Source of the DNA: a virus
Lineage: Duplodnaviria; Caudoviricetes
Direction: 5' to 3' (one strand)
Virus record (IMG/VR): IMGVR_UViG_3300030397_000458
Coordinates: 1-61,915 of that record
Length of the DNA: 61,915 nt
Position 1 is the stretch's first letter. Each line of letters begins with the position of its first letter. Below are positions 3,647 through 58,726 of the stretch, one piece after another. The notes under the pieces are model-generated. The model was not told the DNA's origin. It ran no database searches and was given only the letters and a program-made list of their open reading frames with translations. A program made the translations under genes and the position numbers.

Positions 3647-4771
3647 ATGGCACGACAATCAAAGCAATCAGCGTTTCTGGCAAAGCTCGGAGCCAAAGGT
3701 ATCAAGGCACACGAGGAGCATAAGTCATCAGAGGTCGAATTCGATACATTCGGCGACCTTCCACCAGGGATCAATGGAGGTGTGGCGCAGCTCAAAGAAT
3801 GCAAGCTCGACACGTACAGCAAAGGAGATATGGCAGGGGAGTACTACTTTCTCGCACGAGGAGTAGTAGTCTCACCTGTCGAGCACGAAGGTCTCCACGT
3901 ACAGGGACTATCAACAATGATCATGGAGCCCATCTGCGAGACACCAGGCAGATCAAGAGAGTCAGTGAGCGATCATCTGAAACAAGTGTACAACGAGCTG
4001 AAAAAGCTGGGCCTTGAGATTCCTGACGACATCGAAAATCTGGAGCCCGCACTGGAAGCACTGAAAGAGGTACAACCTTACTTCACATTCCGCACCTGGC
4101 AGGGTGCAGCAACAGAGGAATTCCCGAATCCAAGAGTCAACCATTCATGGTCTGGGGCTATCAACTACAACGGAGAGACAGAGAGCAGTCAAGGAGTCAA
4201 TGATACTCTTGGCGATATTGAAGATGATGACGAACAGGAGGAGGAGGAGGAGGAAGAGGAAGAGGAAAAGGAGGAGCAAGTAAGATCTGAATCCAAAAAG
4301 CCGACTAAGAAGCGAGCAACCAGAAAAAAGAAGGAACCAGAGCCAGAATTTGATGAATTCAATGACTTGTACAGTATCGCTGAGAAAGCAGAAGATCAAG
4401 ACGAAGAGGCGCAAGAAAAGCTGGAGAATCTGGCAAAAGAGGCAGGAATCCCACAGACAGAAATCGACGATGCCGACACATGGAAAGACCTGGTTGATAT
4501 GATCCAGCTCTCAATGCAGACAGAAAGTGAAAGCACAGAAGACGACAATGACGATTCGGAAAACGAAGAAGAAGAATTCGAGCCACAGGTCGAAGACGTG
4601 TACAACTTCCGACCACCAAACAGCAAGGGCGTTTTCTCAAAGAGGACCAAACCTATTGAGGTCGAAGTCATCAAAGTGAACAAACGAAAGAGGACGTGCG
4701 ACGTGCGAGACTTGTCAGATTTGAGCAATGTATTCAAAGGACTACCGTGGAGCCGACTCGAAACAGCATAG
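3647..4771 (+). CDS. Putative ssDNA-binding protein with long acidic region
   Basis: Position after Sak4, LPPG N-terminal motif, Glu-rich tract. Confidence 0.5.
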   Translation: MARQSKQSAFLAKLGAKGIKAHEEHKSSEVEFDTFGDLPPGINGGVAQLKECKLDTYSKGDMAGEYYFLARGVVVSPVEHEGLHVQGLSTMIMEPICETPGRSRESVSDHLKQVYNELKKLGLEIPDDIENLEPALEALKEVQPYFTFRTWQGAATEEFPNPRVNHSWSGAINYNGETESSQGVNDTLGDIEDDDEQEEEEEEEEEEKEEQVRSESKKPTKKRATRKKKEPEPEFDEFNDLYSIAEKAEDQDEEAQEKLENLAKEAGIPQTEIDDADTWKDLVDMIQLSMQTESESTEDDNDDSENEEEEFEPQVEDVYNFRPPNSKGVFSKRTKPIEVEVIKVNKRKRTCDVRDLSDLSNVFKGLPWSRLETA

Positions 4772-4856
4772 GCAATTTGGTGTTACAAAAGAGAGCCGAC
4801 GATACTAATGTGGAGCCGTCTCTCTTCACTTCTCTATAATTATCTTTCAGGAAAAA

Positions 4857-5173
4857 TGATGCCAAAACTCCCAAATTATAGCCAGCTTGTTGTTTATTTG
4901 ACTAAAATCTGCAAATCAGAAGGAGAGACACCCTATCCATGTTGTCAAGCTTGGAGAGTCGAAAGTGTAAACGAAGCGTATTCTATTATTGGTTGTCTCA
5001 AAGACGCATACCCGCAGTGTCAGTGGAGGAAAATGGGACCGACTGATTGGATAGGAGATTTGAGAAAAGGTTTAAAGACAGTGATCTCTTACAGATCATG
5101 TCTATCAAACCCCACAGGATTAAGCGATAGTATCTTACATTTTGTAAAAATTGATAGGAGAAAATATCCATGA
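4857..5173 (+). CDS. Hypothetical protein
   Basis: ORF with AGGA upstream, overlaps polA start (ATGA). Confidence 0.55.
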
Positions 5174-7278
5174 AAACTATCGCAATCGATACAGAGACAA
5201 CAGGTCTCGACTTGAGACACTCTTGCAAGCCTTACTTTGTTTCTATCTGTGAAGAAGGAGGAGAACAGAAATACTGGCACTGGCAAGTAAACCCTCTGAC
5301 ACGCCAGCCTATTATCCCAAAGTCAGACCTGATCGAGATACAAGACGAGATCAACATCCGACACCGTTACAGCAGGAAGGTATTCCACAACAGCAAATTC
5401 GATGTGCTTGCTCTCCAGTCAATCGGATTCGGTAAATGGGACTGGTCGCGAACAGATGACACTCTGATTGCAGGTCACTTGCTCGCAAGTAACAGACCTC
5501 ACAATCTAACCTCTATGGTTCTTGAATATCTGCAAACCAATATCCAGCCTTACGATGACGCACTACAAAAATCGTGCAACGCTGCGAGACGTACAGCCCG
5601 GAAGCACTTTCCTGAATGGAAGATAACCACAAAACTCATGGAAGGCTTACCATCAGCTTCTCAGAAGCTGTGGAAGTGTGACACCTGGCTACCTGGTCAA
5701 ATCGCTGACGCACTTGAATATGAAGATGACCACGAATGGCGTACCGTGCTAGAAGAATATGCGAACGTAGATAGTGCAGTGACTCTGGTGCTCTGGCAGA
5801 ACTTATATAAGCTCATGCAAGACAGAGGACTGCTCAAGATCTACGAATCGCGAAAGAAAGATATGCAAATCGCACTTGAAATCGAAGACAGAGGCGTGAC
5901 AATCTCACAAGAGAGGACAGAGGAGAAGCTATTGGAATATAAAGAAGAAGTAGAACGGATAGAGAAGGTGTGCAAAGGGATTGCGCAGACGTTTGGATAT
6001 GACTTGACTCTACCAAAAAGCGGTACAAATCACTCTCTTGTGAAATTCATTTATGGAGAAAAAAAAGACAGTAGCACATGGCTCGATCCTGAGTTTGAGC
6101 ATAAAAACCTGGGGATCAAGCCAGTGCTGTGGACGAAAACAGGCAACCCGTCACTAGCAAAAGATGCTATTGATATATACAAGCTGACACTGAACGCACG
6201 AACAAAGCAGTACTTGTTCATCAAAAAAATCTCAGAGAGGAGCAAGCGAGCAACAGCTCTTTCTTACATGGAATCTTATCAACGTTTTTGGATTCAAAAT
6301 AAAGGAGAAAGGTGGTCGCGACTCTACCCGAATCTAAACCCTACAGGTACAGTCACTCTGAGGATGAGCTCCAGTAATCCCAACGAGCAGAACATATCAA
6401 AGAAAGAAGACTTCAACCTCCGTTACATCTTTGGTCCAGCACCAGGAAGAGAATGGTATTCGATTGATGCAAAGAATATAGAGCTGCGCATACCAGCATA
6501 CGAGTCAGAGGAAGAGAGCTTGATCCAATTATTTGAGAGACCTGACGACCCACCATATTACGGGAGCAATCACCTGCTTTGCTGCCATATCTTGCATCCA
6601 GAAAAATTCGATCAATGCCTATCTGATGGCGAATCATTCAAGGACAAGTATAAGTCAACATGGTATCAATGGACAAAAAACGGCAACTTCGCCGTGCAGT
6701 ACGGAGCAATTGAGTCATCAGGAACAGCAGATAGGGCTTATCACTTAGAGGGCGCACAGAGGATAATCCAGAGCAAATTCACAAAGTTAGCCAAGCTGAA
6801 TCAGGCACAAATCGCCTTTGCTGAGAGAAACGGATACGTTGAAACTATGCCCGATAAGACAGTCGATCCGAGAAGAGGCTACCCTCTGCAATGCACGCGC
6901 ACAGAGCACGGAAGGATCAAACCTACAGTACCTCTCAACTACCATGTACAAGGTACAGCTATGTGGTGGATGCACAAAGCTATGATCAGGTGTCACGAAT
7001 TTCTGAGCCAGAGGTACAACGCGAATCATCAGCCAGAGAACCACGCCTATATGATCATGCAGGTACATGATGAAATCGTATTTGATCTTCCATCTGGCGT
7101 GCGTAAAGATCACAAACCAGACGACTGGGAGCACAACACAAACAGAGCAGTCATCAAGCAACTGAAAGTATTAATGGAGAGAGGAGGAGATGATATTGGA
7201 ATCCCTACTCCGTGTGACGTGGAATGGCATCCACGCAGCTGGAGTGAGGGAATCAACGTATCAGCTTACTGTGATTAA
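5170..7278 (+). CDS. polA: DNA polymerase family A with 3'-5' exonuclease
   Basis: IDTETTG, HNSKFD, TGT.T.RMSSSNPN.QNI, motif A DAKNIELR, motif B KNGNFAVQYG, motif C QVHDE. Confidence 0.95.
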   Translation: MKTIAIDTETTGLDLRHSCKPYFVSICEEGGEQKYWHWQVNPLTRQPIIPKSDLIEIQDEINIRHRYSRKVFHNSKFDVLALQSIGFGKWDWSRTDDTLIAGHLLASNRPHNLTSMVLEYLQTNIQPYDDALQKSCNAARRTARKHFPEWKITTKLMEGLPSASQKLWKCDTWLPGQIADALEYEDDHEWRTVLEEYANVDSAVTLVLWQNLYKLMQDRGLLKIYESRKKDMQIALEIEDRGVTISQERTEEKLLEYKEEVERIEKVCKGIAQTFGYDLTLPKSGTNHSLVKFIYGEKKDSSTWLDPEFEHKNLGIKPVLWTKTGNPSLAKDAIDIYKLTLNARTKQYLFIKKISERSKRATALSYMESYQRFWIQNKGERWSRLYPNLNPTGTVTLRMSSSNPNEQNISKKEDFNLRYIFGPAPGREWYSIDAKNIELRIPAYESEEESLIQLFERPDDPPYYGSNHLLCCHILHPEKFDQCLSDGESFKDKYKSTWYQWTKNGNFAVQYGAIESSGTADRAYHLEGAQRIIQSKFTKLAKLNQAQIAFAERNGYVETMPDKTVDPRRGYPLQCTRTEHGRIKPTVPLNYHVQGTAMWWMHKAMIRCHEFLSQRYNANHQPENHAYMIMQVHDEIVFDLPSGVRKDHKPDDWEHNTNRAVIKQLKVLMERGGDDIGIPTPCDVEWHPRSWSEGINVSAYCD

Positions 7279-9079: not shown

Positions 9080-11392
9080 ATGCCAAAAAGAGACAATACG
9101 CCAATTGCTTTGCGTCCCTATGAATTTCATGGATTGGATCTTGAGTGGGGAGAGAGAAATGCAGAAGCAACGTCGACTTGTCCTTTTTGTCATTCTGAAT
9201 CCAAATTCAGTATCAACATCGAATCAAGCAAATTCAAATGCTTCAAATGTGCCGAATCAGGCAACGCCACAAGCTTCTTATCAAAGATCTATCGAGAATG
9301 CGAGATACAGGAAGGCTCCGCGAAGTCTCTCCTGAAAGAGAGAGGATTGAGATACTTATCAACGATTGAAGCATGGGGCTTGAAATGGTCACACTTACAG
9401 AATGAATGGATCGTGCCCGGATTCTCGACACCAAAAAAGCTACACCAGCTCTACCGGTATGTGAGGATCAAGAACAAGAAAACAGGAAAATGGTCGCGTG
9501 TGCTGCTCCCTACACCAAGCACGCAAGAAAGGAAGAGAGAGCAAGGAGAGAGCAGTCACGGCATATTTGGATTGAATTTATGGGACGACAAAAAGCAGGT
9601 AGTCTACATCACAGAGGGAGTATGGGACGGGATGGTGTTGTATGAATCACTACGATTCCTCCGAGTGGATGAAAATGGCAAGTTGATCAGCACAAGCAAC
9701 GTCAAAAAGAGCTTGTACAACGAAGTGAATATCATCTCTATTGCAGGTGTGCATGGTCTGAGCTCGAAGCTTGCACGACTACTTGCAGGCAAAGACGTAA
9801 CAATTCTATTCGATAATGACTATCCAAAAACAGTTAAAGTAGGGAGTAGAGAGAAGGTACTGGAGCCAGCAGGTTACCGTGGCGCAAGGGAAGTGACAGA
9901 GACACTTGTTAGTTGTGGAGAGCCACCAGAGAGGATTAGCTATCTGAATTGGGGAGAAGGAGGGTACACAAAAGACCTGCCAGACGGAACAGATTTACGC
10001 GACGTGCTTACCTCTGATATTGCATCATCCTCTCTTTCAGGAAGAGCAAGGGCGTTGACTTCAGTCCTGGAGAGAATCGAGCCAGTCAAAGACGATTGGA
10101 TATCAACAGCAAAGAACAGCAAAACAAAGCCAGGCACTGTCGAGATAGAGCTACTACCATGCCAGAAGTGGGTGGCACTTATCAATGCGTGGCGTAAACC
10201 AATGAAATGGACAGATGGACTAAACAGAGCACTTGCAGCAATGCTTGCATCTGTTGTATCCACAAAGACATTAGGAGATCAGCTCTGGCTAAAAATCATA
10301 GGTCCAGCGAGCTGCGGGAAATCAACGCTGTGCGAAGCGATAAGCACAAACAAAAAGTATATCGTCGCAAAGTCAACCATAAGAGGCTTTCACTCAGGAT
10401 TCAAAACAGACGGAGCAGGAGAAGAAGACAACTCGCTGATCGCACAATTATACGACAAAACGCTGATTACAAAAGATGGCGATACGCTGTTGCAATCCCC
10501 AAACTTAGGCCAGATACTCGCAGAAGCAAGAGATATATATGATTGCACTTCTCGCACGCACTACAGAAACAAGACATCTCGGAGCTACGAAGGTGTCAGA
10601 ATGACATGGCTTTTATGCGGTACAAGCTCACTGCGAAGCATCGACACAAGCGAGCTTGGAGAGAGATTTCTCGATTGCGTTATCATGGACGGTATTGATT
10701 CAGACCTTGAAGAAGACATACTCTGGCGAGTAGCAAACAGAGCTGACAGGTCAACAAACTATGAAGCAAATGGGAAACCAGAGTCAAATCAAGATCCAGA
10801 GATGTCAAAGGCGATGCAGCTCACAGGAGGGTACGTCTCTTATTTGCGTGAGAACGCGAAAGATCTGCTCGAAAAAGTAGTGACAGGTAAGCAGTCACTC
10901 AGAAAGATTATGAAATTCGGGAAATTCGTAGCCTACTTACGCGCCAGACCATCAATGCGACAAGAAGAGAACGCAGAGCGAGAATTTGCTGCACGTCTGG
11001 TGAGCCAGCACGTCAAGCTCGCAAAGTGTCTTGCAGTTGTCCTGAATAAAGAGACACTGGATAAAGAAGTGCTTGCTATGGTCAGAGCTATATCAATCGA
11101 CACTGCGAGAGGTAGAACGCTCGACATTTTGAGAGAAATGCGCAAAGAGCGAGCAAAGGGATTGCCTGTCAAATCTATATCAATAAGGATCAACGAAGCT
11201 GAAAACTCTGTCAGAAAGCTTCTCCGTTTCATGCAGAAAATCGGTATTGTAGAACGAGTAGAAGAGACGACACATAGGACAAGAGGAGTCAGAGCAGTAA
11301 CGCACTGGCGTATGACCGAAGAAATGTATGACCTCTACTTGTTCGTAATTGAATCCAAATTGAGGAGAAAACGTGCCAATACGAGCAGCTAA
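9080..11392 (+). CDS. Primase-helicase (Zn finger + TOPRIM + P-loop ATPase)
   Basis: CPFC..CFKC, ITEGVWDG, FDND, GPASCGKSTL. Confidence 0.85.
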   Translation: MPKRDNTPIALRPYEFHGLDLEWGERNAEATSTCPFCHSESKFSINIESSKFKCFKCAESGNATSFLSKIYRECEIQEGSAKSLLKERGLRYLSTIEAWGLKWSHLQNEWIVPGFSTPKKLHQLYRYVRIKNKKTGKWSRVLLPTPSTQERKREQGESSHGIFGLNLWDDKKQVVYITEGVWDGMVLYESLRFLRVDENGKLISTSNVKKSLYNEVNIISIAGVHGLSSKLARLLAGKDVTILFDNDYPKTVKVGSREKVLEPAGYRGAREVTETLVSCGEPPERISYLNWGEGGYTKDLPDGTDLRDVLTSDIASSSLSGRARALTSVLERIEPVKDDWISTAKNSKTKPGTVEIELLPCQKWVALINAWRKPMKWTDGLNRALAAMLASVVSTKTLGDQLWLKIIGPASCGKSTLCEAISTNKKYIVAKSTIRGFHSGFKTDGAGEEDNSLIAQLYDKTLITKDGDTLLQSPNLGQILAEARDIYDCTSRTHYRNKTSRSYEGVRMTWLLCGTSSLRSIDTSELGERFLDCVIMDGIDSDLEEDILWRVANRADRSTNYEANGKPESNQDPEMSKAMQLTGGYVSYLRENAKDLLEKVVTGKQSLRKIMKFGKFVAYLRARPSMRQEENAEREFAARLVSQHVKLAKCLAVVLNKETLDKEVLAMVRAISIDTARGRTLDILREMRKERAKGLPVKSISIRINEAENSVRKLLRFMQKIGIVERVEETTHRTRGVRAVTHWRMTEEMYDLYLFVIESKLRRKRANTSS

Positions 11393-12743
11393 ACCAACAT
11401 GGCAGACGAACGATCACAAGACAGTCAAAATCTATCAAGGAGACGTGAGAGACGTAGTAAAGAGGCTCCCGTCAAAGTCTGTACAGTGTATTGTCACCAG
11501 TCCTCCATACTGGGCATTGAGAGACTACGGAGCAGAAGGTCAGATAGGGAGCGAGCCAATAGCTGACTGCTACGGGTGGACAAAACAGGACTATTGTGAT
11601 GAATGCCACGTTTGTGTAATGACTACTCTCTTTCAGGAGATAAGTAGAGTACTACGAGACGATGGGACATTGTAGCTGAACTACGGAGATACGTACGCAA
11701 CAAAGACTTATCAAGAGAAGAGGACAAAAGAAACTGTCAGCGATGCAGTCAAAGGCGTTGATAGAGATTATCAACGCAAAGTAGGTAGGCAGTCAGCAGA
11801 AGGACAATTCAGAGTTAAGACAAGACACAACTTACCTTCAGGGAATTTAGTAGGTATCCCATAGCGCGTAGCTCTTGCGCTACAAGCATCAGAAAAATGG
11901 GTATTAAGGCAAGACATAATTTGGTATAAAGTTTCGCCAATGCCTGAGAGCGTGCGCAATCGTTGTACAAAGGCACATGAATACATTTTCTTATTCACAA
12001 AACAGGCATCAGGTTACTACTACGATGCCGAGAGGATCAGAGAGAAGACGGATACTGTAACCCTCTGGGGAAATGAAAACAGCGACGACTATTATAAGAG
12101 AAGTGTTGCTCGAAAGAGAGGTGGTATTATATCTGATCCAAGAAAAGGGACTATTAAGAAGATATTACCCGAAGAAGGGAGCAGAAACAAGAGATCAGTC
12201 TGGAAGGTAGCAACGCAAGCATACTCCGGCGCACACTTCGCGACGTTCCCTGAGAAGCTTATCACTCCTTATATCCAAGCAGGCACAAGCGAGAAAGGCG
12301 CGTGCATTGAATGTGGTGCTCCCTGGATTCGTGTGGTCGAGAGAGACAGACAGGCAACACGGCCAGGAGAGACGAGCAAGGTTAATGCGTTCAGAATTTC
12401 TGAACGATATATAGAAGGACAGTCAAAGCTCAACGGAAAAGACGTAGGAAATAGAGATCTTGAGAGACATATAACGACAACGAAAACTATAGGGTGGGAG
12501 CCACAGTGTGACTGTGAAGCAGAAACTACTCCTTGTCTTGTCCTTGATCCTTTCATCGGTTCAGGCACAACAGCAAAAGTTGCGATAGAGAGTAATGCAG
12601 CATGTTGGGTAATCGAGCTGAACGAAGAGTATATCAAAAACAATATCATTCCGAGAGTGAGAGGATGTATACTGGATATACCATCTCTGTCGTGGTTAGT
12701 GACGAATAAGCCCAAAAAGATCATAGGAGGAGAGAAGTTATGA
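11373..12743 (+). pseudogene. N4-C/N6-A DNA methyltransferase interrupted by two in-frame TAG codons
   Basis: VTSPPY, GTL*LNYGD, GIP*RVALAL, HFATFP and VLDPFIGSGTT all in one frame; TAG at 11673 and 11862. Confidence 0.85.
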
Positions 12744-13048
12744 GCGAGCACAAAAATGAGCATATGCTGAAGCTTATGAAGAAGTGCGAGAAGTGCGGTA
12801 ATAAAGCATGGCGCACCTATGATGACTACTGCTTGAGCTGTAACGCGAAGAGGATCGGAGAGACTCCCAAAAGTCAGAGGAAGAAGGGAAGGTATAAAGG
12901 ACAGGGAAGAAACAGTCACAGAAAGCCGACAAAACGCCCGACTCTCTACCTGCCTGGAACAGAAGGTAAAATACGTGTACTGACTGAGAGAGCCAAAAGA
13001 GGGGAGCATCTGTTTCATGCGCAAGACGCGACGACCAACGAAAGCTAA
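12740..13048 (+). CDS. Hypothetical Zn-finger protein
   Basis: CxxC...CxxC; C-terminal PT...PGTEGKIRVLTERA..GE.LFH motif that I recall from planctomycete proteins. Confidence 0.6.
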   Translation: MSEHKNEHMLKLMKKCEKCGNKAWRTYDDYCLSCNAKRIGETPKSQRKKGRYKGQGRNSHRKPTKRPTLYLPGTEGKIRVLTERAKRGEHLFHAQDATTNES

Positions 13049-13928
13049 ATCTGAATCCAAAAACGTGAAGAAACCCTACAACGTCGAGGATCACGTTGCA
13101 CCTGAAATCATAAAATTTCTTCGCGAGCAGGAAGAGGTGCTCCTCTCTTTCTCGGGAGGAAAAGACAGCCTCTGTACATGGTGTGTGCTGCGTGACTTAG
13201 GTATCAGAGTCTTACCCTTCTACATGGAGATAATCCCAGGTCTCAAATTCGTGAACAATTACCTTGAATACCTCGAAGGAGTATTTGGCGTAGAGATCTT
13301 ACGTGTGCGTCATGCTGAATTTTACAACATGATGCGCACGTACACTTCACAACCACCACACAGAAAGCACTGGATCGACTTACTCAACTTCCAGAAAACG
13401 CAGTATGCGTATATCACAGATGCTGTGAGGAGTCACTACAAAGCAGGAGACCTCTGGTGCATCGTCGGCACACGCGCTACTGACTCACCAGCAAGGAGAG
13501 CGAGCTTTAAACGGAATGGCTGGGCCTACGCAGAGAAAAAGTTATGTTACCCATTATGGGACGTAAACAAGGATGCACTGGTTCACATTCTCAAACATCA
13601 CAGAGTCAAGGTGTCACCTGACTACAAGATGTATGGATTATCTATGGATGGTTTACATTTTCGGTACACGTCGCACTTGAAAAAACACTACCCAGAAGAC
13701 TATGAAACCATTAAATTCTGGTTCCCGTTCGTCGAAGCGGAGGAATACAGGGTAAAATGGGCAATCAAGCACGGCGTTGGAGAAGTCGTAGGATCGTTGG
13801 CGAGAGATTTTAGTCAAGAAGAAAAAAAGAAGGAGAGTATCAATGTTTCAAGAGTCAAGCAAGGGACCAATAAAAAAGAAGGGAAAGAGAAGCGCGACAA
13901 AAAGCAGTCGAGAAAGAGGAAAAAATGA
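13017..13928 (+). CDS. PP-loop / PAPS-reductase-like protein
   Basis: LLSFSGGKDS PP-loop, GTRATDSPARR and YPLWD motifs. Confidence 0.8.
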   Translation: MRKTRRPTKAKSESKNVKKPYNVEDHVAPEIIKFLREQEEVLLSFSGGKDSLCTWCVLRDLGIRVLPFYMEIIPGLKFVNNYLEYLEGVFGVEILRVRHAEFYNMMRTYTSQPPHRKHWIDLLNFQKTQYAYITDAVRSHYKAGDLWCIVGTRATDSPARRASFKRNGWAYAEKKLCYPLWDVNKDALVHILKHHRVKVSPDYKMYGLSMDGLHFRYTSHLKKHYPEDYETIKFWFPFVEAEEYRVKWAIKHGVGEVVGSLARDFSQEEKKKESINVSRVKQGTNKKEGKEKRDKKQSRKRKK

Positions 13929-14532
13929 GAAGCACAAAGTTGAAAAGTCGTGTGTGCCTTATGACCCCAGTATGCCTGAAGTCAACCCCGTAAAGCAGGA
14001 GAAGTATTCAGGACACTTAGAAGAGGATGACATTAAAGAGGCAAAGGTAATCCACGCTACTCTTGACCTGGCAGACAGAAAAGAAGAAGCTGCTCGCGAC
14101 TACAACGAGCAGGACAAAAACGACGGATCGCAAGAAGATGAGAAGCTCAGAAAATTCAAGGAAGCCGTCAAACGGCAAAGAGCAGAGGTCAAAGACCTGA
14201 CGAGCAACGGATTCTGGACGTGCCTGGTATTCCCGAGTGAAGAGGTGTGCTACGAATTCCTGGAAAAAACAGGTTGGATAGAATTCGCGGAACGGTATAA
14301 TGCATATGTAGATGGGTTGTCAGTCGCAGAGCAAATGGGTATAGAGCTCGAATCTCTCAGACTTATCAGATTCCGCACTGGTGGACCTGACAAGAGACTC
14401 GTCAATGAGGTAGGAGTCTATGACAGCGAGACAGATGAAGCACCAGATTTGTTGGAAGACCTGGAAGATGAGGATATTGAATTGACACCTGAAGAGCTCG
14501 CACTACTGGAGGACGAAGGCGACGAAGAGTAA
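13843..14532 (+). CDS. Acidic partner protein of the PAPS-reductase-like gene
   Basis: FWTCLVF.SEE...EFL...GW....YVDG...A..MGI motif; overlaps upstream gene. Confidence 0.6.
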   Translation: MFQESSKGPIKKKGKRSATKSSRERGKNEKHKVEKSCVPYDPSMPEVNPVKQEKYSGHLEEDDIKEAKVIHATLDLADRKEEAARDYNEQDKNDGSQEDEKLRKFKEAVKRQRAEVKDLTSNGFWTCLVFPSEEVCYEFLEKTGWIEFAERYNAYVDGLSVAEQMGIELESLRLIRFRTGGPDKRLVNEVGVYDSETDEAPDLLEDLEDEDIELTPEELALLEDEGDEE

Positions 14533-14570
14533 TAAATTTTAACACAACAAAAACGAAAGAAAGAAAAATT

Positions 14571-14828
14571 ATGACACTAACTCTGATCTTTCTTGCAATT
14601 GGTGCGATACTATTATTCACTCTACCTGTTCAGCCTGATGGCAGCGGTCGCGGACTAGGTAAAGGTGGTATGTCAGCACTTAGAGCATTCCAGAGACTCT
14701 CAGGAAATAATACACCACTATTAGGCAGAAGAGCAGCAGCACCTAACACTCCTGATAGTCCGAGAGGACCGAGATCTGAAACCGGTTCAACAAGAGGGCC
14801 AGGCACGGGTGGAGTATCGCCAAGTTAA
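14571..14828 (+). CDS. Small hydrophobic-leader Gly/Pro-rich peptide, copy 1
   Basis: 85 aa, paralogue of the next ORF with synonymous divergence. Confidence 0.75.
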   Translation: MTLTLIFLAIGAILLFTLPVQPDGSGRGLGKGGMSALRAFQRLSGNNTPLLGRRAAAPNTPDSPRGPRSETGSTRGPGTGGVSPS

Positions 14829-14853
14829 CGACAAAACGAAGGGAGCAAAAACT

Positions 14854-15105
14854 ATGACACTAACTCTGATCCTTCTTGCAATTGGATTAATCCTCCTCTT
14901 CACGTTACCAGTACAACCCGATGGTAGCGGTCGCGGTTCTGGTAAGGGTGGTATGTCGGCAATCAGGGCACAGGAACGACGATCCGGAGGAATCACTCCT
15001 ACGAATCTATCACCAGCAGCACCTAACACATTCATATCTCCCAGAGGTGCAGGAGAAGGCACCTCTGCCGGAGGAGGAGGGGTGAGAGGCCCAGGTGGTA
15101 TCTAA
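14854..15105 (+). CDS. Small hydrophobic-leader Gly/Pro-rich peptide, copy 2
   Basis: 83 aa from ATG 14854, GGGAG RBS, paralogue of 14571-14828. Confidence 0.75.
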   Translation: MTLTLILLAIGLILLFTLPVQPDGSGRGSGKGGMSAIRAQERRSGGITPTNLSPAAPNTFISPRGAGEGTSAGGGGVRGPGGI

Positions 15106-15195
15106 TGGAGCTGGTAGTGGATTTAGTAGTAATCTTGTTCTTCATCTCTCTATGTGATTTGAAAGATTGAGCAAGAGCACAAAAAGCAACAACGC

Positions 15196-15451
15196 GCAAC
15201 TGCCTTGACATAAGAAGGTCACTCGTTGAGAGTATCAGTTACAAGTTGTCTCTCACACTGGTCCTGTGTTAAAGTAACTGGTGCTTTGTACGATCAATGA
15301 GTGAATAGGTGCAATCCCTATCAGTTGCAATGAGGGAGAAGTGATGACTCTCCCTCAGTTTCGCATGTTTCTTGACGAGTATCATGGAACGCGAGACTTC
15401 TCTAAGGTGGCGAGTCTGTGAGGTAGAGATATCTTGCAGACTCGTTTTTTT
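15196..15451 (+). ncRNA. Structured ncRNA with tRNA-like cloverleaf domain, extra hairpins and terminator
   Basis: GCAACTG/CAGTTGC acceptor-like stem, CCTT/AAGG D-like arm, long extended arm, ATAGG-TGCAATC-CCTAT T-arm, then three hairpins. Confidence 0.6.
15411..15451 (+). terminator. Intrinsic terminator
   Basis: CGAGTCTGTGAGGTA/TATCTTGCAGACTCG stem followed by T7. Confidence 0.7.
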
Positions 15452-15479
15452 GCTTAAATTTTCAAATTTGGATTCAAAA

Positions 15480-16154
15480 ATGAGCACGCGACCGAAAAAA
15501 CCGACTAATCCAGAACCTATCAAAGACCCAAAGACGAACAGGACAGTAACTGAAAAGCAGATGAATTTTGTTCATGAATACCTGGCTTCAATGGACGCGA
15601 AGAAAGCAGCGCAGCGAGCCGGTTACTCTGAGCAAAAAGCACCGATTGTAGCGAAGGCATTCATGGACCCTGAGCGTTACCCTCTTATCAATAAGCTCAT
15701 TCAAAACGGGTTGCGATTGCGAAGAGAGGCACTGAAAGTAGACTCCGACAAAATCATACAGGAGCTCGCTTGCATTGGCTTTCTCAATCCTCTTGATCTA
15801 TTCCACAAAGATGGACAACCTAAGAAATTCCTTGAAATGACGAGAGAGACAGCAGCGGCAGTCAAGTCTATCAATATCTCATACAAAGAAGACATCGATG
15901 AGGAAGGCGAATTCAGGACAATCAAGCACGTTAATATGCAATTCCACGATAAGCTGAAAGCATTGGAGCAACTGGCAAAAATGCTAGGTGCCATACAAGA
16001 GCTACAACTAACGCAGCACAATACTCAGGTGAACATTATCGATTGGGATAAGATGTTCTCAAAGCCGGAGATGATTGAAGATCCGATCGAGAAAGAAATC
16101 TTATCTGTATCATCTTCCTTTCAGGAAAACGGGAACAGCAACGGAGCGCAATAG
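15480..16154 (+). CDS. terS: Terminase small subunit
   Basis: TEKQMNFVHEYL...A.KAAQRAGYS HTH, DKLKALEQLAK; directly upstream of terL. Confidence 0.9.
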   Translation: MSTRPKKPTNPEPIKDPKTNRTVTEKQMNFVHEYLASMDAKKAAQRAGYSEQKAPIVAKAFMDPERYPLINKLIQNGLRLRREALKVDSDKIIQELACIGFLNPLDLFHKDGQPKKFLEMTRETAAAVKSINISYKEDIDEEGEFRTIKHVNMQFHDKLKALEQLAKMLGAIQELQLTQHNTQVNIIDWDKMFSKPEMIEDPIEKEILSVSSSFQENGNSNGAQ

Positions 16155-16771
16155 TGTTTTTCAAATCTGATAAAGTCATTGACCCGCTCCGCATGGCTGA
16201 AGTGCTCTGGCCACACATCACTTTCTATGATAAGCAGCGAGAAATTATCTACTCTGTCCTTGAAAATGACGAGACGTTCGTTCCGGCAGGAAACATGCTG
16301 GGCAAAGACTTCGTATCAGGATTCATTACTCTATGGTTCTTCCTTTCTCGCAATCCAGTGCGAATCCTCACAACAAGTGCCGACTACTCGCAGCTCGAAT
16401 CTGTCTTATGGGGAGAGATCAGGCGATTTATACAAGAGGCGCACAGTCCATTGACACACGACAAAGGTGGTCCTATCGTCCTGAATCATCTACATATGAG
16501 AAAAGTAGTGAAAGGCGAGCTGTGCGGACTAAGCTATTGCTTGGGACGTGTGGCAGCAAAAGGCGAGGGATTGTTAGGCCACCACATCGCAGCAGAGTCA
16601 GATGGTATACCACGCACGTTATTCATCGCTGACGAAGCATCAGGAGTAGAGGATATTTCTTACGAGAGAGCCGACACCTGGGCACGCCGGAAGCTTATAA
16701 TAGGAAACCCCTACACATGCAACAACTTCTTCCAGCGCGGAGTTGAAGAAGGTGACCTGGTTGCAGAGTAA
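16154..16771 (+). CDS. terL: Terminase large subunit, N-terminal ATPase part
   Basis: Walker A-like PAGNMLGKDF, Walker B FIADEASG, coupling motif IGNP. Confidence 0.85.
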   Translation: MFFKSDKVIDPLRMAEVLWPHITFYDKQREIIYSVLENDETFVPAGNMLGKDFVSGFITLWFFLSRNPVRILTTSADYSQLESVLWGEIRRFIQEAHSPLTHDKGGPIVLNHLHMRKVVKGELCGLSYCLGRVAAKGEGLLGHHIAAESDGIPRTLFIADEASGVEDISYERADTWARRKLIIGNPYTCNNFFQRGVEEGDLVAE

Positions 16772-16786
16772 CTATAGAGCGATAAT

Positions 16787-16987
16787 ATGGGATTCTCAGG
16801 ATACGTTCACGTCGAGGTAGACATAAAAGCAGAGTCAGATAAGGCATTTCTTATAGTCTACAACGAGAGAGAAATCTGGCTCCCGAAGTCACAGATAGCT
16901 GACAGCGACGACTATAGCAAAGGGGATACAGAGGTGAGCATCGCTATCACTGACTGGATCGCCGAGCAGAACGGGATCACCAGCTAA
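16787..16987 (+). CDS. Small protein inserted within terL
   Basis: 66 aa with ESDKAFLI...WLPKSQI motif. Confidence 0.65.
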   Translation: MGFSGYVHVEVDIKAESDKAFLIVYNEREIWLPKSQIADSDDYSKGDTEVSIAITDWIAEQNGITS

Positions 16988-17017
16988 CACTCCTTCTTTT
17001 TTGCCTCACGATGGACA

Positions 17018-17968
17018 GTGTCCATGACAAACTACTATCGAAAAATCATAAGGATCACAGCAGAAGACTCACCGAATGTACGCTATGGATTAGCTGAAGA
17101 GCAAGCAGGACTGGAACCGTCAAACAAGATCATCATCCCTGGCGTGCTTCCTTACGCCGACTACAAAAAGAGAAGAAAAGTCTGGGACGAGATGAGGCAG
17201 TGCATAGGTCTTGACGCTCTCTTTTATGAGGGAGCAGAAATCATGTTTTTTCCTCGCGAATGGCTCTTACTCTCTGAGCGTAACGCAGTCTTATTAGAGA
17301 ACAGGCAAAGAAAAGCTCGCACAATCGGAATAGATCCAGCAGAAGGCGGAGACTACACAGCATACTGTATTGTTGATGATTATGGTATCATTGATCTGAT
17401 CAGGAAGAAAACACCAGATACTAATGCGATTTTCGAGGATGTGACGACATATATGCACTATTACGGTGTGCGCGCTCATGATGTCTACATCGACAGAGGA
17501 GGAGGAGGAAAGCAGCACGCTGACAGACTCAGAGCATCAGGGTATAAAGTGAAGACTGTCGCGTTTGGGGAACCGGCAACAAGAGAAATGCGTACAGGTA
17601 TGACTCCTCTGGATCAACGTATACATGAGAGAGAGGAGTCATATGTCTACGCTTCGAGACGAGTTGAAATGTATGCTATACTCAGAGAGCTGCTCAATCC
17701 TGCATTCGGTCATAACTTCGCGATACCAAAGAGGTTAATGGATCTCTATCTAAGACAGGAATTAAAGCCTGTCCCGTTCACCTATGGTCCAGAGGGTCGA
17801 TTGATTCTACCACCAAAGAGGAATTTATCAAAAGATGCGAAGAATCCTTCTTTGATTGACCTAATTGGACACAGCCCAGATTGCTCAGACGCATTAGTGC
17901 TCGCCACTTACGGTATGATGAAACGACGATACAAAGCAACAGCAGGTGTGACTTTTTCAAAGTCTTAG
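17018..17968 (+). CDS. terL: Terminase large subunit, C-terminal part (lid + RNase H-like nuclease)
   Basis: EDSPNV, IGIDPAEGGD, IDRGGGG, SPDCSDAL. Confidence 0.85.
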   Translation: MSMTNYYRKIIRITAEDSPNVRYGLAEEQAGLEPSNKIIIPGVLPYADYKKRRKVWDEMRQCIGLDALFYEGAEIMFFPREWLLLSERNAVLLENRQRKARTIGIDPAEGGDYTAYCIVDDYGIIDLIRKKTPDTNAIFEDVTTYMHYYGVRAHDVYIDRGGGGKQHADRLRASGYKVKTVAFGEPATREMRTGMTPLDQRIHEREESYVYASRRVEMYAILRELLNPAFGHNFAIPKRLMDLYLRQELKPVPFTYGPEGRLILPPKRNLSKDAKNPSLIDLIGHSPDCSDALVLATYGMMKRRYKATAGVTFSKS

Positions 17969-18030
17969 CTATAAACGAATAGCAAGATTTTTATTCTTCA
18001 AATTTGGATTCAAAAACAGGAATCAAGCAC

Positions 18031-21000
18031 ATGGCGGCAATCACACTCGCAGAAACAAACCCAGCACAGTCGTACTTCGCACGGACAATCACACAGCACA
18101 AATATGCTCACACCAAGCAGGGAGGTAACAAAGAATCATGGGAAGAGATCGCAAGCAGGGTAGCTCACAGTGTCATGGATCACTATACACACTCAAGAAA
18201 CACAAACCACGTAGAGAGCTTGATCAAGGACAGGAAGCTGATGCCTGGAGGTAGATACCTCTATGCGTCAGGAAGGAAGTATCACCAGATCAACAACTGC
18301 CTGGGTGGTGAAGAGAAGATCATCACAATCAGAGGAGTCAGAACGCTGAAGGAGCTGGCTGAAGATGGCAAGAGATTTATGGTCTTGAACCGTTTCGGTG
18401 TGTGGAATCACGCAACAGCAGGCTGCTTTGGAAAGCAGAAGCTATGGAGAATAAAGCTCAGTAATGGAGATGTAATCAGGGCCACAGCAGCTCACAGATG
18501 GTGGCAAGCAGACGGGACGCGAGTCACAACGGAAGAAGTAAAGAAGATCCCTCTATGTGAAATGACTGTGCCAGGTGTATACTTAGACGAAGAAGGAATA
18601 AAGCACGGTATATGTTACGGAGACGGGACAACACAAAGACACACGAAGACTGACAGACTGGTGCTCGCGCAGCACAAAGAAGAACTGTCTTCATACTTCG
18701 ATGAAAGCAGACAGTTAAAACAAGGGTTGACTATCTCAAAGCTACCCAAAAAATACAAGTCACTACCTGATGATCGAGTATGTAGCGTTGAGTATGCGAG
18801 AGGCTTCATCGCGGGACTGATAGCAACAGATGGATCGACAAAGACATCAATGATCACTATCTCTCTTTCAGGAGAAAAGGAAGAAGCCGAGCAAGTACGC
18901 AGGCTAGCTGTGCTGGGAGGTTGTGTCGTCAACGGGATATGGAAAGATAAGTCAGAAGAGACGAACTACGGTAAACGGTCTACTCCTCTCTACATTATCA
19001 GCATCAAGCCATTCTCAGCACCTCTGATCCGCAGCGACCAAATTCAAGATGTTCATTCAAAAGAGCTACGCAAAACAAAAATGTATCTGACTGTCGAGAA
19101 CATCACAGAAGAGGAGACAGAGGAAGATGTCTACTGCTGTGTTGTGCCTGGAAGCGAATCGTTTACTCTCGCGAATGGTCTTATCACTTCAAATTGCTTT
19201 TTGTTCCGCGCTGACGACTCGCGAGAAGGCTGGGCAAAGATCATGCACGACACGACGAACGCTCTCATGACAGGTGGTGGCGTTGGTGTAGTGTACTCAG
19301 ATATCAGAGGATCAGAGACTCTTGTAGAAGGAATGGGAGGAACATGCTCAGGACCACTGGCATTAATGCGTATGGTGAATGAAGCAGGACGCGAGATCAT
19401 GCAAGGAGGAAGTAGGCGAGCAGCAATCTGGGCAGGTCTGAGATGGGATCACCCAGACATAAAAAACTTCGTCTATATGAAAGACTGGCCCCTTGATCTG
19501 CAAGAGATGAGAACGAAGAATTTCAACTTTCCCTGTCCGATGGATGGCACAAATATCAGTGTAATACTGGATACACAGTTCTTCAAAGCGTACCGCGACA
19601 AGTCACACGAGAAGCATAAGCTCGCACAAAAGGTATACTGGTCTACTGTCCGGCAAATGCTCAAGACAGGAGAACCGGGCTTCAGCGTAGATATCGGAGA
19701 AAATGAGGGTGAGAACAACAGAAATGCTCCTGTACATGGAGACACAAGAGTCCTAACTATACAAGGATATCGTCGCGCTTACGAGCTGACAGAAGGGAGT
19801 CATACAGTCTGGACTGGTAACCAATGGGCACACAATATCACATTCAAACGCACTGCTGAGAATACAAAAACAGTGCGAGTCAAGATGACAGGTGGTAGAG
19901 AGATTGTATGTGATCCATCGCATCCATTCATCGTACAGCGATTCAGTGGGAAGGGATCACACAGAAAATTGGACAGTGAAGAACGTATACCAGCCGGACA
20001 ATTAGAAGAAGGCGACACAATCAGAGTCTCGCTTCCTGTCTCGTCAGGATCACAGCAAATCCAGTCAGATCAGGCTTATACAATGGGCTTCATTTGGGGG
20101 GACGGGAGCCTGGTAGGAAAGAGTAGAGCAGAAGTAGCTATCTGCCATGAATCGAAAAAACCGTGCGCAGAGAGATTCGCCGGGATTTCCTCAAAGACAG
20201 TAGACTCAAGAGGTTACGACAGATATTATTTCAACCAGAACCCTCTCTACTTCAATCAGTCCAAAGAGCGAATACCAGACGTTCTCAAAACAAATCGCTA
20301 CGAATGGGTAGCAGAATTCCTCGCAGGACTGTTCGACGCGGATGGGAATGTAGACCAGGCACAGCACAGAATCCGACTCTCTTCGTCCAAGCTCCTCTTT
20401 CTCCAAGAATGCCAGCGACTGCTTGAAACACTCGGAGTCTTATCTTCCATCAATAAAGGATCGGCATCAGGTTACACTGGTAATCCAACATGGATGCTCG
20501 TTGTGTCAGCATCGTATGTTAAACAATTCCTGAACGTGGTTCCCACCGTTCGGCTTAAGATGAAAACAGACGACTGGGAGCCGTACAGAGAGTCAACTAT
20601 CAAAGTCATTTCTGTCACACCAGATCAAGACGCAGATGTCTACTGTTGTGACGTAAAGGTAGACGAGCATACGTTTTGCGCTGAGGGAGTTATCATTTCA
20701 AACTGCTGCGAAGTAACTTCCCGGTTCAATGGTGATATGTGTAATCTGTCGAGCTTAAATCTTGCCAGGTACGCGACAATTGAGGAATTCTCTGAAGCTG
20801 TACGCATGGGAACGCTACTCTTGCTGTGTGGAACAATGTACAGCAAGCTTCCAATAGAGTATATGTACGGAGTGAGAGAGAAGACAAGAAGACTCGGACT
20901 GGGATTGATGGGCGTGCATGAATGGTTATTAAGACGTGGTTACAAGTATGAGGCAGGTAATGAAGAGCTGGCTTTATGGATGGACGAATACAAGAAGTCA

Positions 21001-21573
21001 ACACAGCACGCGATAGACTGGGCTGACAGTATGGGGATCAGCCGACCTGTAGCCACGAGGAGCATTGCGCCAACAGGAACGATATCAATCGTAGCTGAGA
21101 CAACATCAGGGATTGAGCCAATTTTCGCAGTCGCGTACAAGAGACGATACCTCAAAAAGAATGACTGGTACTATCAGCATGTGATAGACGCGACTGCGCA
21201 ACGTCTTATACAGTCGGGAGTTAATCCAGATCTGATTGAAGATTCGTACACTCTGAGTGAGGACGTGGAAAGGCGAATCAAGTTTCAGAGATGGATGCAA
21301 GAGCGAGTGGACCACGGTATTTCGAGCACTATCAACTTACCGAAATGGGGCAGCACACTCAACAGCGAGCATACAGTCAAATCATTTGGTGAGAAGCTAT
21401 TACAAGACTTGCCGGGACTGAGAGGGATGACGACATACCCTGATGGCGCACGTCCTGGACAGCCAATAGTACCAATGAGATACACAGAAGCTGTGAAGCA
21501 TATATCGAGAGGAGAAGTGGAAGTAAAGGAAACAGGTGACGAGTCGTGCAAAGGTGGCTTTTGTAATTCCTGA
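18031..21573 (+). CDS. nrdJ: Class II (adenosylcobalamin) ribonucleotide reductase with two inteins
   Basis: PGGRYL, GGGVG, QGGSRR.A, CNL, LGLG.MG, IAPTGTIS, SGIEP, ISSTINLP; no beta subunit in window. Confidence 0.9.
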   Translation: MAAITLAETNPAQSYFARTITQHKYAHTKQGGNKESWEEIASRVAHSVMDHYTHSRNTNHVESLIKDRKLMPGGRYLYASGRKYHQINNCLGGEEKIITIRGVRTLKELAEDGKRFMVLNRFGVWNHATAGCFGKQKLWRIKLSNGDVIRATAAHRWWQADGTRVTTEEVKKIPLCEMTVPGVYLDEEGIKHGICYGDGTTQRHTKTDRLVLAQHKEELSSYFDESRQLKQGLTISKLPKKYKSLPDDRVCSVEYARGFIAGLIATDGSTKTSMITISLSGEKEEAEQVRRLAVLGGCVVNGIWKDKSEETNYGKRSTPLYIISIKPFSAPLIRSDQIQDVHSKELRKTKMYLTVENITEEETEEDVYCCVVPGSESFTLANGLITSNCFLFRADDSREGWAKIMHDTTNALMTGGGVGVVYSDIRGSETLVEGMGGTCSGPLALMRMVNEAGREIMQGGSRRAAIWAGLRWDHPDIKNFVYMKDWPLDLQEMRTKNFNFPCPMDGTNISVILDTQFFKAYRDKSHEKHKLAQKVYWSTVRQMLKTGEPGFSVDIGENEGENNRNAPVHGDTRVLTIQGYRRAYELTEGSHTVWTGNQWAHNITFKRTAENTKTVRVKMTGGREIVCDPSHPFIVQRFSGKGSHRKLDSEERIPAGQLEEGDTIRVSLPVSSGSQQIQSDQAYTMGFIWGDGSLVGKSRAEVAICHESKKPCAERFAGISSKTVDSRGYDRYYFNQNPLYFNQSKERIPDVLKTNRYEWVAEFLAGLFDADGNVDQAQHRIRLSSSKLLFLQECQRLLETLGVLSSINKGSASGYTGNPTWMLVVSASYVKQFLNVVPTVRLKMKTDDWEPYRESTIKVISVTPDQDADVYCCDVKVDEHTFCAEGVIISNCCEVTSRFNGDMCNLSSLNLARYATIEEFSEAVRMGTLLLLCGTMYSKLPIEYMYGVREKTRRLGLGLMGVHEWLLRRGYKYEAGNEELALWMDEYKKSTQHAIDWADSMGISRPVATRSIAPTGTISIVAETTSGIEPIFAVAYKRRYLKKNDWYYQHVIDATAQRLIQSGVNPDLIEDSYTLSEDVERRIKFQRWMQERVDHGISSTINLPKWGSTLNSEHTVKSFGEKLLQDLPGLRGMTTYPDGARPGQPIVPMRYTEAVKHISRGEVEVKETGDESCKGGFCNS
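18298..19194 (+). mobile_element. Intein 1 with LAGLIDADG homing endonuclease
   Basis: NN|CLGGEE...ATAAHRW...FIAGLIATDG...VYC...NGLITSN|C. Confidence 0.9.
19729..20703 (+). mobile_element. Intein 2 (Pro1, non-canonical) with LAGLIDADG homing endonuclease
   Basis: RNA|PVHGDTRV...GFIWGDG...FLAGLFDADG...VYC...HTFCAEGVIISN|CCE. Confidence 0.88.
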
Positions 21574-31642: not shown

Positions 31643-32007
31643 TTGGTATCAAGATCGAAGGACTGAAAGACGTTAGTAGGGCTCTTGGTTCAGCCTCAAG
31701 GAAATACGGAGGAAGGTCTGGTAATCCGAGTGTGATAGTCGGCTTCACACAAAAGTATGCGTTGAAAGTACATGAAGACTTGAAAACACCTCACAGAGTA
31801 GGGCAAGCAAAGTACTTGGAGCAACCCGCACGCGAGCTGGAAAAAGAGCTGAGACAACTGATAGCTGCGGCTATGAAAGCCAAAGCAACACTATCAAAAG
31901 CATTACTCGTTGCAGGGCTAAGAATCCAACGAGAAGCACAGTTGCTTGTCCCTGTCGATACGGGGGCATTGAGGGCCAGCGCGTTCACAAGATATGAGAA
32001 AAAGTGA
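31639..32007 (+). CDS. HK97 gp10-like neck / tail completion protein
   Basis: YA..VHE, GQAKYLE.P and VPVDTG.LR.S motifs. Confidence 0.8.
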   Translation: MIGIKIEGLKDVSRALGSASRKYGGRSGNPSVIVGFTQKYALKVHEDLKTPHRVGQAKYLEQPARELEKELRQLIAAAMKAKATLSKALLVAGLRIQREAQLLVPVDTGALRASAFTRYEKK

Positions 32008-32014
32008 GCAAACA

Positions 32015-45046: not shown

Positions 45047-45075
45047 TTATTACTACAAAGAAAGTAGCAACAACA

Positions 45076-46217: not shown

Positions 46218-46246
46218 AAGAGTAAACAACGAAAAGAGGAACAACA

Positions 46247-47317: not shown

Positions 47318-47320
47318 CGA

Positions 47321-58722: not shown

Positions 58723-58726
58723 CTTT

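Follow-up and report, generated by a model that had tools for sequence, protein, structure and literature searches.

A PP-loop enzyme, a partner protein and small basic peptides as a candidate three-part module beside the terminase genes of tailed phages

The tailed phage represented by the IMG/VR record IMGVR_UViG_3300030397_000458 (61,915 bases, estimated completeness 87%; this whole stretch of DNA is called the window below) encodes a PP-loop enzyme, an acidic partner protein and two small paralogous peptides, A and B, in a single string of genes on the + strand (Table 1). The locus lies between a replication block (recombination genes, DNA polymerase, primase) and the terminase, portal, head and tail genes. 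The enzyme and its partner are homologous to a pair that recurs in other phages, the two peptides are genes under selection, and a slot for small basic peptides recurs beside the pair in most of the loci examined. These data point to a three-part phage module that many unrelated phages would have right next to their terminase genes and of which the window would carry one version. The reading as a whole, including a functional link for the window peptides, is put forward tentatively, with a confidence that falls a little short of even.

The assignment of the first gene to PAPS-reductase-like PP-loop enzymes with an SGGKDS motif, made in an earlier note on this DNA, was confirmed by its match to phrog_2302 and by an alignment in which S46, G47, G48, K49 and D50 are invariant. 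The match to the Pfam family PAPS_reduct (PF01507) was below the cut-off of 22.5 bits (17.6 bits, E 0.0042). The PADLOC model of SspD, for which there is no curated cut-off, aligned with residues 42-286 (profile positions 3-245 of 277; E 8e-7, 27 bits), and this match over most of the enzyme makes the DNA-phosphorothioation enzymes its nearest named relatives; the NCBIfam model of DndC did not match. The AlphaFold2 model (mean predicted local distance difference test score, pLDDT, 86.7) has a predicted PAPS-reductase/adenine-nucleotide alpha-hydrolase fold with its nucleotide-binding loop. Its best structural matches among 48,161 solved chains were the PAPS domain of FAD synthase (Z 13.6), APS reductase (Z 12.4), CysD (Z 12.1) and CysH (Z 12.0; 6vpu, 189 residues aligned, root-mean-square deviation 4.4), with TilS, NcsA, LarE and GMP synthetase ranking close behind this clade. 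Foldseek searches of the PDB returned only generic PP-loop enzymes with a template-modelling score of about 0.4, the TtuA type weakly first, and TtuA was also the top sequence-profile match among solved structures, again a weak one (E 1.2e-5). No relative was found in single-protein searches of IMG/VR with the enzyme or with peptide A. The closest relatives of the enzyme among 5.8 billion proteins were 22-37% identical; as they are only about 235 amino acids (aa) long, the Lys-rich C-terminal extension (about residues 255-303), which they do not have, is peculiar to this phage.

Across an alignment of 20 enzyme sequences, the invariant positions are those of the PP-loop and of a G..DS..R motif, together with D and P residues close to the C-terminus. 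No invariant or nearly invariant Cys was present in the same alignment, and the four Cys of the window enzyme (53, 56, 148 and 177) are not conserved in the family. The PAPS reductase reaction needs a conserved C-terminal catalytic cysteine. The lack of such residues argues against that reaction and also against an Fe-S sulfur transfer like that of DndC, which, as described in PMC10853773, has three cysteines that hold a 4Fe-4S centre and, in addition, a cysteine dyad. We infer that the enzyme is not one of sulfur assimilation.

The overlapping acidic partner reported earlier is indeed present: its open reading frame (ORF) overlaps that of the enzyme by 86 nucleotides (nt) and encodes a protein with an isoelectric point (pI) of 4.65 and 58 D+E versus 36 K+R. 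A GAAGGAG Shine-Dalgarno-like site precedes its ATG; a start at the internal ATG 13972 was considered and dropped, as this site stands at 13843. No Pfam or PHROG match was obtained for the partner at default thresholds. In the relatives found with the enzyme alignment, the next gene encodes an acidic protein of about 230 aa, a member of phrog_9353 with a ParB domain at its N-terminus. A profile built from ten of these ParB-like partners aligned with residues 98-161 of the window partner (hhalign E 1.1e-4, probability 57%), and phrog_9353 aligned with the same stretch (E 0.03, profile positions 150-237 of 245). Decisive support for the homology came from cultured phages, since the proteins encoded after the enzyme in Pasteurella phage Pm86 (32% identity), Bifidobacterium phage BigBern1 and Gordonia phage VanLee align with the window partner over its conserved core, and the BigBern1 copy also matches the C-terminal part of phrog_9353. 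In the AlphaFold2 model of the partner (mean pLDDT 56.5), the blocks of the core reached means of 72-87 and the rest was poor.

The ParB N-terminal domain was absent from the window partner, and ParB_N was detected in none of the window ORFs scanned. These scans covered 11 ORFs around the locus and, elsewhere in the window, 68 ORFs with PHROGs and 62 with Pfam; as the record is 87% complete, the absence of a companion gene from them is not proof. Judged by sequence, the module thus comes in two forms, one in which the enzyme is accompanied by a fusion of ParB_N to the core (form A) and another, that of the window, in which the partner consists of the core only (form B).

The two tandem paralogous peptides that had been proposed to follow the partner are 71% identical, and their genes are underlain by a direct DNA repeat of 138 nt (14550-14687 and 14833-14970, 78% identical). 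Over codons 1-40 the two genes differ by 18.7 synonymous and 9.3 non-synonymous changes, corresponding to proportions of 0.57 at synonymous sites (pS) and 0.11 at non-synonymous sites (pN) and to a ratio of non-synonymous to synonymous rates (dN/dS) of 0.11. This agrees with the earlier statement that the differences are largely synonymous. The differences at codon positions 1, 2 and 3 number 7, 3 and 18, and stop codons abound in both of the remaining forward frames. Peptides A and B are real coding genes under selection; the pattern of synonymous change ruled out the repeat as a non-coding element, such as a pac site or binding sites of the small terminase subunit (terS).

The hydrophobic segment at the start of both peptides reaches a maximum 18-residue Kyte-Doolittle mean of 2.6-2.7. 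The tails (residues 23 to the end) have net charges of +6 and +4, a pI of about 12 and a Gly+Ser+Ala+Arg+Pro content of 67-69% (67% in A), compared to 31% in a sample of the proteins of the window. The peptides end in -GGVSPS and -GPGGI, and an RGPG..G motif near the C-terminus is kept in both although the middle has diverged. As no charge precedes the hydrophobic segment and a basic tail follows it, the positive-inside rule predicts that the N-terminus lies outside and that the basic tail stays cytoplasmic, held at the membrane.

A word-indexed search of 5.8 billion proteins with the peptides returned only the query itself and its paralogue, and a HMMER profile search of 1.84 billion representatives added only P0023, a repeat protein of 355 aa matched in four stretches (E 8e-6), which was rejected as a low-complexity match. 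In the ESM Atlas no match exceeded 0.85 for peptide A or 0.78 for the peptide of one relative, and no match was found in Pfam, PHROGs, NCBIfam or PADLOC for any of the small peptides of the window or of its relatives that were scanned. Co-folding of the enzyme with the partner (residues 95-229) and a peptide tail (residues 21-85) scored 0.00, a value that counts neither for nor against binding.

The slot occupied by peptides A and B was then compared with that of the relatives. A search with the partner alignment yielded 12 viral loci of form B, with one near-identical group of three (L076, L077 and L078) and one near-identical pair (L082 and L083). In each of the 12, a basic ORF of 24-53 aa lies between the partner and the packaging genes. 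When 12 non-redundant gaps were counted, the window included, a peptide-class ORF was present in 12/12, against 2.0 expected from 300 mononucleotide shuffles per gap, most of this expectation coming from two high-GC loci. In the gap of the window, where the two real ORFs span 14571-15105, such an ORF appeared in 28/300 shuffles. The gene order assigned through PHROGs is enzyme (phrog_2302), partner, peptide, terS-type gene and large terminase gene (TerL), the latter coming next directly in L081 and L082. The window peptides fill this slot exactly, as a tandem pair, and tandem pairs were also found in Pm86, L082 and L083. The packaging families vary from locus to locus (terS phrog_1889, 57 and 645/5334, with 51 in the window; TerL phrog_2, 15, 38 and 979), indicating that the peptide accompanies the enzyme pair rather than a particular type of terminase. 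The peptides of form B had no match in the PHROG scan, and 8/17 of those tabulated end in -SSGS.

Ten distinct cultured phages were matched by the enzyme, and a peptide-class ORF was present in all eight that were examined (Aleemily and ObLaDi were left out). In GenBank these ORFs are unannotated in Pm86 (a tandem pair, L065 4643-4747 and 4760-4858), VanLee (L067 5007-5117) and BigBern1 (L066 2219-2320), and annotated as hypothetical in Morgana, Cafasso and CA1NRNZ; the corresponding proteins of the Lactobacillus phages JNU_P7 and LR1 are longer (123 and 141 aa) and share this kind of tail. In the Gordonia phage Morgana the three genes of the module are gp171-173. The Pm86 pair is conserved in L082 and L083, where most of the changes are synonymous. 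Peptide b of Pm86 and that of L082 differ over codons 1-18 by 11 synonymous and 0 non-synonymous changes, show an in-frame indel of one codon and are preceded by AGGAG-type sites; the relatives' peptides are real genes.

For form A, 23 loci with a near-full-length enzyme match were considered, after exclusion of L012 (a duplicate of L011), L016-L019 (distant or partial) and archaeal matches to the N-terminal part only. By inspection, 14/23 have a strongly basic ORF of 52-72 aa directly upstream of the enzyme, which ends within about 85 nt of the enzyme start or overlaps it. Eleven of these 14 peptides end in -GG and the other three in -SG, -EG and -GA, often within a [RK]S.GG.GG pattern. The peptide component is duplicated in L010 as well, where one basic ORF ending in -GG (4792-4950) precedes the enzyme and another (5629-5847) separates it from the ParB gene. 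An automatic rule, which asked for net basic ORFs outside large ORFs with two or more Gly among the six C-terminal residues, was positive in 15/23 loci, although some of its hits, in the high-GC loci L015, L027 and L031, are not trusted and L008 was missed by it; small gap ORFs were positive in 19/174 cases near the enzyme versus 8/249 far from it (Fisher p 0.002). In public data the peptides of form A are called genes for a 'hypothetical protein', without Pfam domains (20 clusters). The expectation of the earlier note that small Gly-rich ORFs should be found beside homologous PP-loop genes was therefore borne out at the level of the class (12/12 in form B, 8/8 in cultured phages and 14/23 in form A), but not at that of the sequence, as the relatives' peptides are not detectably homologous to those of the window.

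According to the reading that we favour, the parts of the module would be a PAPS-reductase-fold PP-loop ATP pyrophosphatase without conserved Cys (phrog_2302); a partner with a conserved domain of about 70 residues, fused to ParB_N in many phages (phrog_9353) and standing alone here; and one or two small, very basic, Gly/Ser/Ala/Arg-rich and probably disordered peptides with a C-terminus of small residues. In the window the third part would be the tandem paralogues of 85 and 83 aa, uniquely provided with an N-terminal hydrophobic anchor. PP-loop enzymes adenylate a substrate oxygen and release pyrophosphate. As no cysteine is available for a sulfur relay, the simplest chemistry would be an adenylation and then an attack by an amine or hydroxyl, so that the enzyme may spend ATP to adenylate an oxygen nucleophile while the partner holds or regulates the reaction. 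The likeliest client would be the peptide tail, as substrate or as activated carrier or adaptor, because the peptide is the sole conserved candidate client in the module. The lack of conserved Cys, the position on the terminase side, the partner domain and the small peptide together argue for a peptide-linked function, and the enzyme probably works with the peptides and not in sulfur metabolism. That the peptide is the direct substrate of the enzyme is a narrower claim within this proposal, which we hold with less confidence than the proposal as a whole and judge rather less likely than not. A further step, which we consider clearly unlikely, would be a minimal tagging system, in which the enzyme uses ATP to activate the small-residue C-terminus of the peptide and joins the peptide to a target, the PAPS-reductase fold taking the place of E1 or PafA. 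The target might lie on the DNA during packaging, whose ends or bases would receive a peptide cap, or might be a phage or host protein, and the membrane-anchored version of the window would tether the tagged target at the membrane.

Several observations weigh against the proposed module. Tests of hidden Markov models (HMMs) against composition-matched shuffles led us to reject homology between the window tails and the relatives' peptides: with an HMM of 13 peptides from ParB-type loci, 191/300 and 176/300 shuffles scored at least as high as the real window tails, and with an HMM of 7 peptides from partner-type loci this was so for 255/500 (A) and 14/500 (B, marginal). The relatives' peptides are themselves weakly alike beyond composition (2-26/300 shuffles in leave-one-out tests). 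The composition and charge of the window tails fall within the range of 34 relatives' peptides (Gly+Ser+Ala+Arg+Pro 39-80%), but the hydrophobic segment is found only in the window (the 18-residue maximum of the others is at most 1.06), and the window peptides end in residues other than the -SSGS or -GG of the relatives. By inspection, 9/23 ParB-type loci have no clear peptide, and the two highest-GC gaps of form B yield such ORFs by chance in 215-247/300 shuffles. Moreover, the peptide of the Cutibacterium phage CA1NRNZ lies on the terminase strand, divergent from the enzyme, and in the Pm86-like loci a GC-rich hairpin followed by a T run, recognised by eye, separates the partner from the first peptide (L065 about 4590-4640, and the same place of the alignment in L082 and L083), so the Pm86-like peptides may be transcribed with the terminase genes. 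In view of these last two features, the peptides might be part of packaging and have no tie to the enzyme.

Such a role, in which the peptides would be DNA-condensing or terS-assisting factors tied to the terminase and the enzyme pair merely a frequent neighbour, would explain why the peptide always adjoins terS (downstream in ParB-type loci, upstream in partner-type loci), and extreme basic charge suits nucleic-acid binding. We nevertheless regard it as decidedly unlikely, as the terS and TerL families vary while enzyme, partner and peptide stay together, the window terminator falls after the peptides and before terS, and a membrane anchor fits DNA condensing poorly. In addition, the Ralstonia phage Raharianne has a Pm86-like terS (39.5% identity) without the enzyme and has no such peptide upstream, a control that consists of one phage group and thereby also limits what can be drawn from it for the module. 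A rather improbable explanation is that the enzyme and its partner form a DNA-directed modification pair (a DndC/SspD-related enzyme with a DndB/ParB-like helper) acting around packaging, and that the peptides are unrelated membrane proteins, e.g. exclusion or host-takeover factors, found at the end of the operon by chance. The SspD match over nearly the full enzyme (E 8e-7), the fusion of the relatives' partner domain to a ParB N domain, also found on DNA methyltransferases (phrog_498, phrog_620), the position of the module beside DNA methylase and terminase genes and the lack of homology between the peptides of the window and of the relatives would all be consistent with it, as would the likeness of phage PAPS-reductase-like proteins to DndC put forward in PMC8092301. 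What speaks for the proposed module over a DNA-directed pair is that no Cys is invariant in the 20 sequences, in contrast to the cysteines of DndC (PMC10853773), that the Pfam and PHROG scans of window ORFs revealed neither a cysteine desulfurase nor DndD/E or SspA/B/C, that the window partner has no ParB N domain and that the recurrent small basic peptide gene beside the pair would be left unexplained.

The architecture of a ribosomally synthesised and post-translationally modified peptide (RiPP), suggested in the earlier note, held in that the peptides are real, selected genes that form one string with the enzyme and partner and end at a terminator. PP-loop enzymes do occur in RiPP pathways, e.g. 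the lasso cyclases of asparagine-synthetase type, and the N-terminal part of A and B is conserved while the tails diverge beside an ATP-dependent enzyme. A canonical RiPP cluster, in which the leader would be recognised by an adenylating enzyme and the core modified, cleaved and exported or built into the virion, is nonetheless very improbable. The conserved 'leader' is a hydrophobic, anchor-like segment found in none of the 34 relatives' peptides, which at 24-72 aa in all have no leader-like part; as the RGPG..G near the C-terminus is also kept, the tail does not vary freely as a core would; and the window peptides lack a detectable homologue, resembling the relatives' peptides in composition only. 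No protease, exporter, recognition domain or other RiPP gene was found near the locus or among the window ORFs scanned, the trypsin-like peptidase at 31994-32905 being far away in the structural region. It is just as hard to credit that the peptides act in lysis, as a holin/antiholin-like or other pair encoded upstream of terS in lambdoid style, with the enzyme as an auxiliary gene of sulfur metabolism. Two similar proteins encoded upstream of terS, each with one transmembrane-like segment and a charged C-terminal tail, would suit such a pair, and phage PAPS reductases are labelled auxiliary metabolic genes in PMC10434257 and PMC12323421. However, no endolysin or spanin was adjacent or among the ORFs scanned in this 87% complete record, no holin PHROG was matched, the genes stand in the replication/modification string before the terminator and not with the late genes, and the enzyme family has no conserved Cys.

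All the ORFs listed in the earlier note were present in the ORF list at the positions that it gave, including the hydrophobic one of 21 aa, which is at most a putative gene (Table 1). After it come about 240 nt (15171-15408) without a convincing ORF, with an 8-bp inverted repeat near 15333-15357, and then a strong hairpin preceding terS that the earlier note did not report; by its sequence, this terminator-like element would close the gene set before terS. As it falls within the longer of the possible terS ORFs, terS probably starts at 15480 and not at TTG 15372. Upstream of the enzyme, the basic ORF of 102 aa had no match in Pfam, PHROG, NCBIfam or PADLOC; a small Cys-containing ORF likewise lies directly upstream of the enzyme in L003, the closest viral relative of the enzyme, and the 102-aa ORF may be a member of the gene set. 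An Rfam scan of 11000-18500 gave a single sub-threshold match only, the window contains no tRNA genes, and a DNA search with the locus against 50,697 phage records gave no match.

Table 1. Features of the locus and their coordinates in the window.
Feature	Coordinates	Strand	Basis and remarks
Basic ORF, 102 aa, two CxxC pairs	12740..13048	+	Overlaps enzyme start by 32 nt
PP-loop ATP pyrophosphatase, PAPS-reductase fold, phrog_2302, 303 aa	13017..13928	+	phrog_2302 E 3.2e-21
PP-loop motif SGGKDS, residues 46-51	13152..13169	+	S46, G47, G48, K49, D50 invariant in alignment
Partner, 229 aa: Lys-rich start, conserved core, acidic tail	13843..14532	+	Homology to the gene after the enzyme in relatives
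Partner conserved core, residues 98-170, corresponding to the C-terminal domain of phrog_9353 ParB-like proteins	14134..14352	+	Profile comparison
Peptide A, 85 aa: hydrophobic residues 1-20 (nt 14571-14630), then basic Gly/Ser/Ala/Arg/Pro-rich tail	14571..14828	+	
Peptide B, 83 aa, paralogue of A	14854..15105	+	GGGAG ribosome-binding site upstream
Putative hydrophobic ORF, 21 aa	15105..15170	+	Start overlaps stop of peptide B; ORF list only
Terminator-like hairpin, 17-pair stem then T run	15409..15456 (stem 15409-15446)	+	Hairpin scan
Small terminase subunit (terS)	15480..16154	+	Pfam Terminase_2 E 8.4e-23; phrog_51; start inferred

Other features of the window were noted in passing. The large terminase is encoded in two ORFs, 16154-16771 (205 aa, no family match) and 17018-17968 (316 aa, Terminase_6C / phrog_2), separated by a 66-aa phrog_8389 ORF (16787-16987); it is either a split gene or one with an insertion, and no Rfam intron was found there. 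The coding sequence of an N6/N4 DNA methylase occurs in two pieces, 11373-11675 and 11940-12743, which are 264 nt apart, and an 89-aa fragment at 8406-8675 matches only the start of a C5 cytosine methylase. The ribonucleotide reductase ORF (18004-21573, 1189 aa) matches PHROGs in two to three separate stretches and may hold an insertion such as an intein. The structural block also holds, besides the trypsin-like peptidase, a class-3 lipase (30459-31268). After the tail genes, a cluster of sugar chemistry (43970-50175) encodes two glycosyltransferase-like proteins, a UDP-glucose dehydrogenase, a GNAT protein, a methyltransferase and a DegT-type aminotransferase. In a leftward block, 56200-56976 and 57925-58926 (- strand) encode paralogous proteins with an FGE-sulfatase domain (phrog_18508, labelled kinase).

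Phage PAPS-reductase-like genes are common, and they and their ParB neighbours are already known as annotations; they are treated as auxiliary metabolic genes (PMC10434257, PMC12323421) or likened to DndC (PMC8092301). No description of the accompanying small peptides was found in the portions of the open-access literature covered, supplements aside, and this third component of the module appears to have gone unnoticed so far. Its gene is mostly missing from annotation and is nevertheless present in most of the loci examined, and what the window contributes is a version in which the peptide is duplicated and, as predicted, membrane-anchored. If the peptide were a substrate or a tag, a new chemistry of protein or nucleic-acid modification would be added to phage biology, and the widespread annotation of phage 'PAPS reductase' genes as sulfur-metabolism genes would have to be corrected.

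The module can be compared with several known systems. Like a RiPP precursor and its enzyme, the locus has small, precursor-sized, duplicated genes beside an ATP-dependent enzyme, but there is no leader/core logic in the relatives, no protease or exporter was found, and a hydrophobic N-terminus stands in place of a recognition leader. Cap9 (QueC-like, PDB 9nto), according to the title of its entry, has a PP-loop fold that acts on a protein substrate; it belongs to another PP-loop clade, is a weaker match to the enzyme (Z 9.6) than the PAPS-reductase clade (Z 12-13.6) and comes from a defence and not a packaging context. TtuA tops both the profile and the Foldseek lists, and one of the entries is TtuA bound to its carrier TtuB, which ends in Gly-Gly. 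The C-terminus of TtuB is activated by a separate E1-like enzyme. Ubiquitin- and Pup-like tags, small proteins with a free C-terminal Gly-Gly or Gly-Gly-Glx, offer a possible parallel: the relatives' peptides end in -GG in most ParB-type loci and often in -SSGS in partner-type loci, and they are small and look disordered, as is Pup. In contrast to TtuB and the ubiquitin-like proteins, the peptides described here are basic and of low complexity, not beta-grasp proteins, and the enzyme lacks the Fe-S cysteines; compared to the Gly-Gly tags, the window peptides carry 1-4 extra residues after GG. DndC/SspD with DndB likewise combine a PAPS-reductase-like PP-loop enzyme with a helper of the ParB superfamily, but the family of the window enzyme has no conserved Cys, no desulfurase, DndD/E or SspB/C was found in the window scans, and the Dnd/Ssp systems, as described in PMC10853773, have no peptide component, unlike the module proposed here. 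Finally, the pairs of phrog_2302 and phrog_9353 (IbrA/IbrB type) share with the window the enzyme family, a partner domain encoded after the enzyme and the place on the terminase side; compared to them, the window partner has only the C-terminal domain, without the ParB N domain, and the window adds a predicted membrane anchor and the duplication of the peptide.

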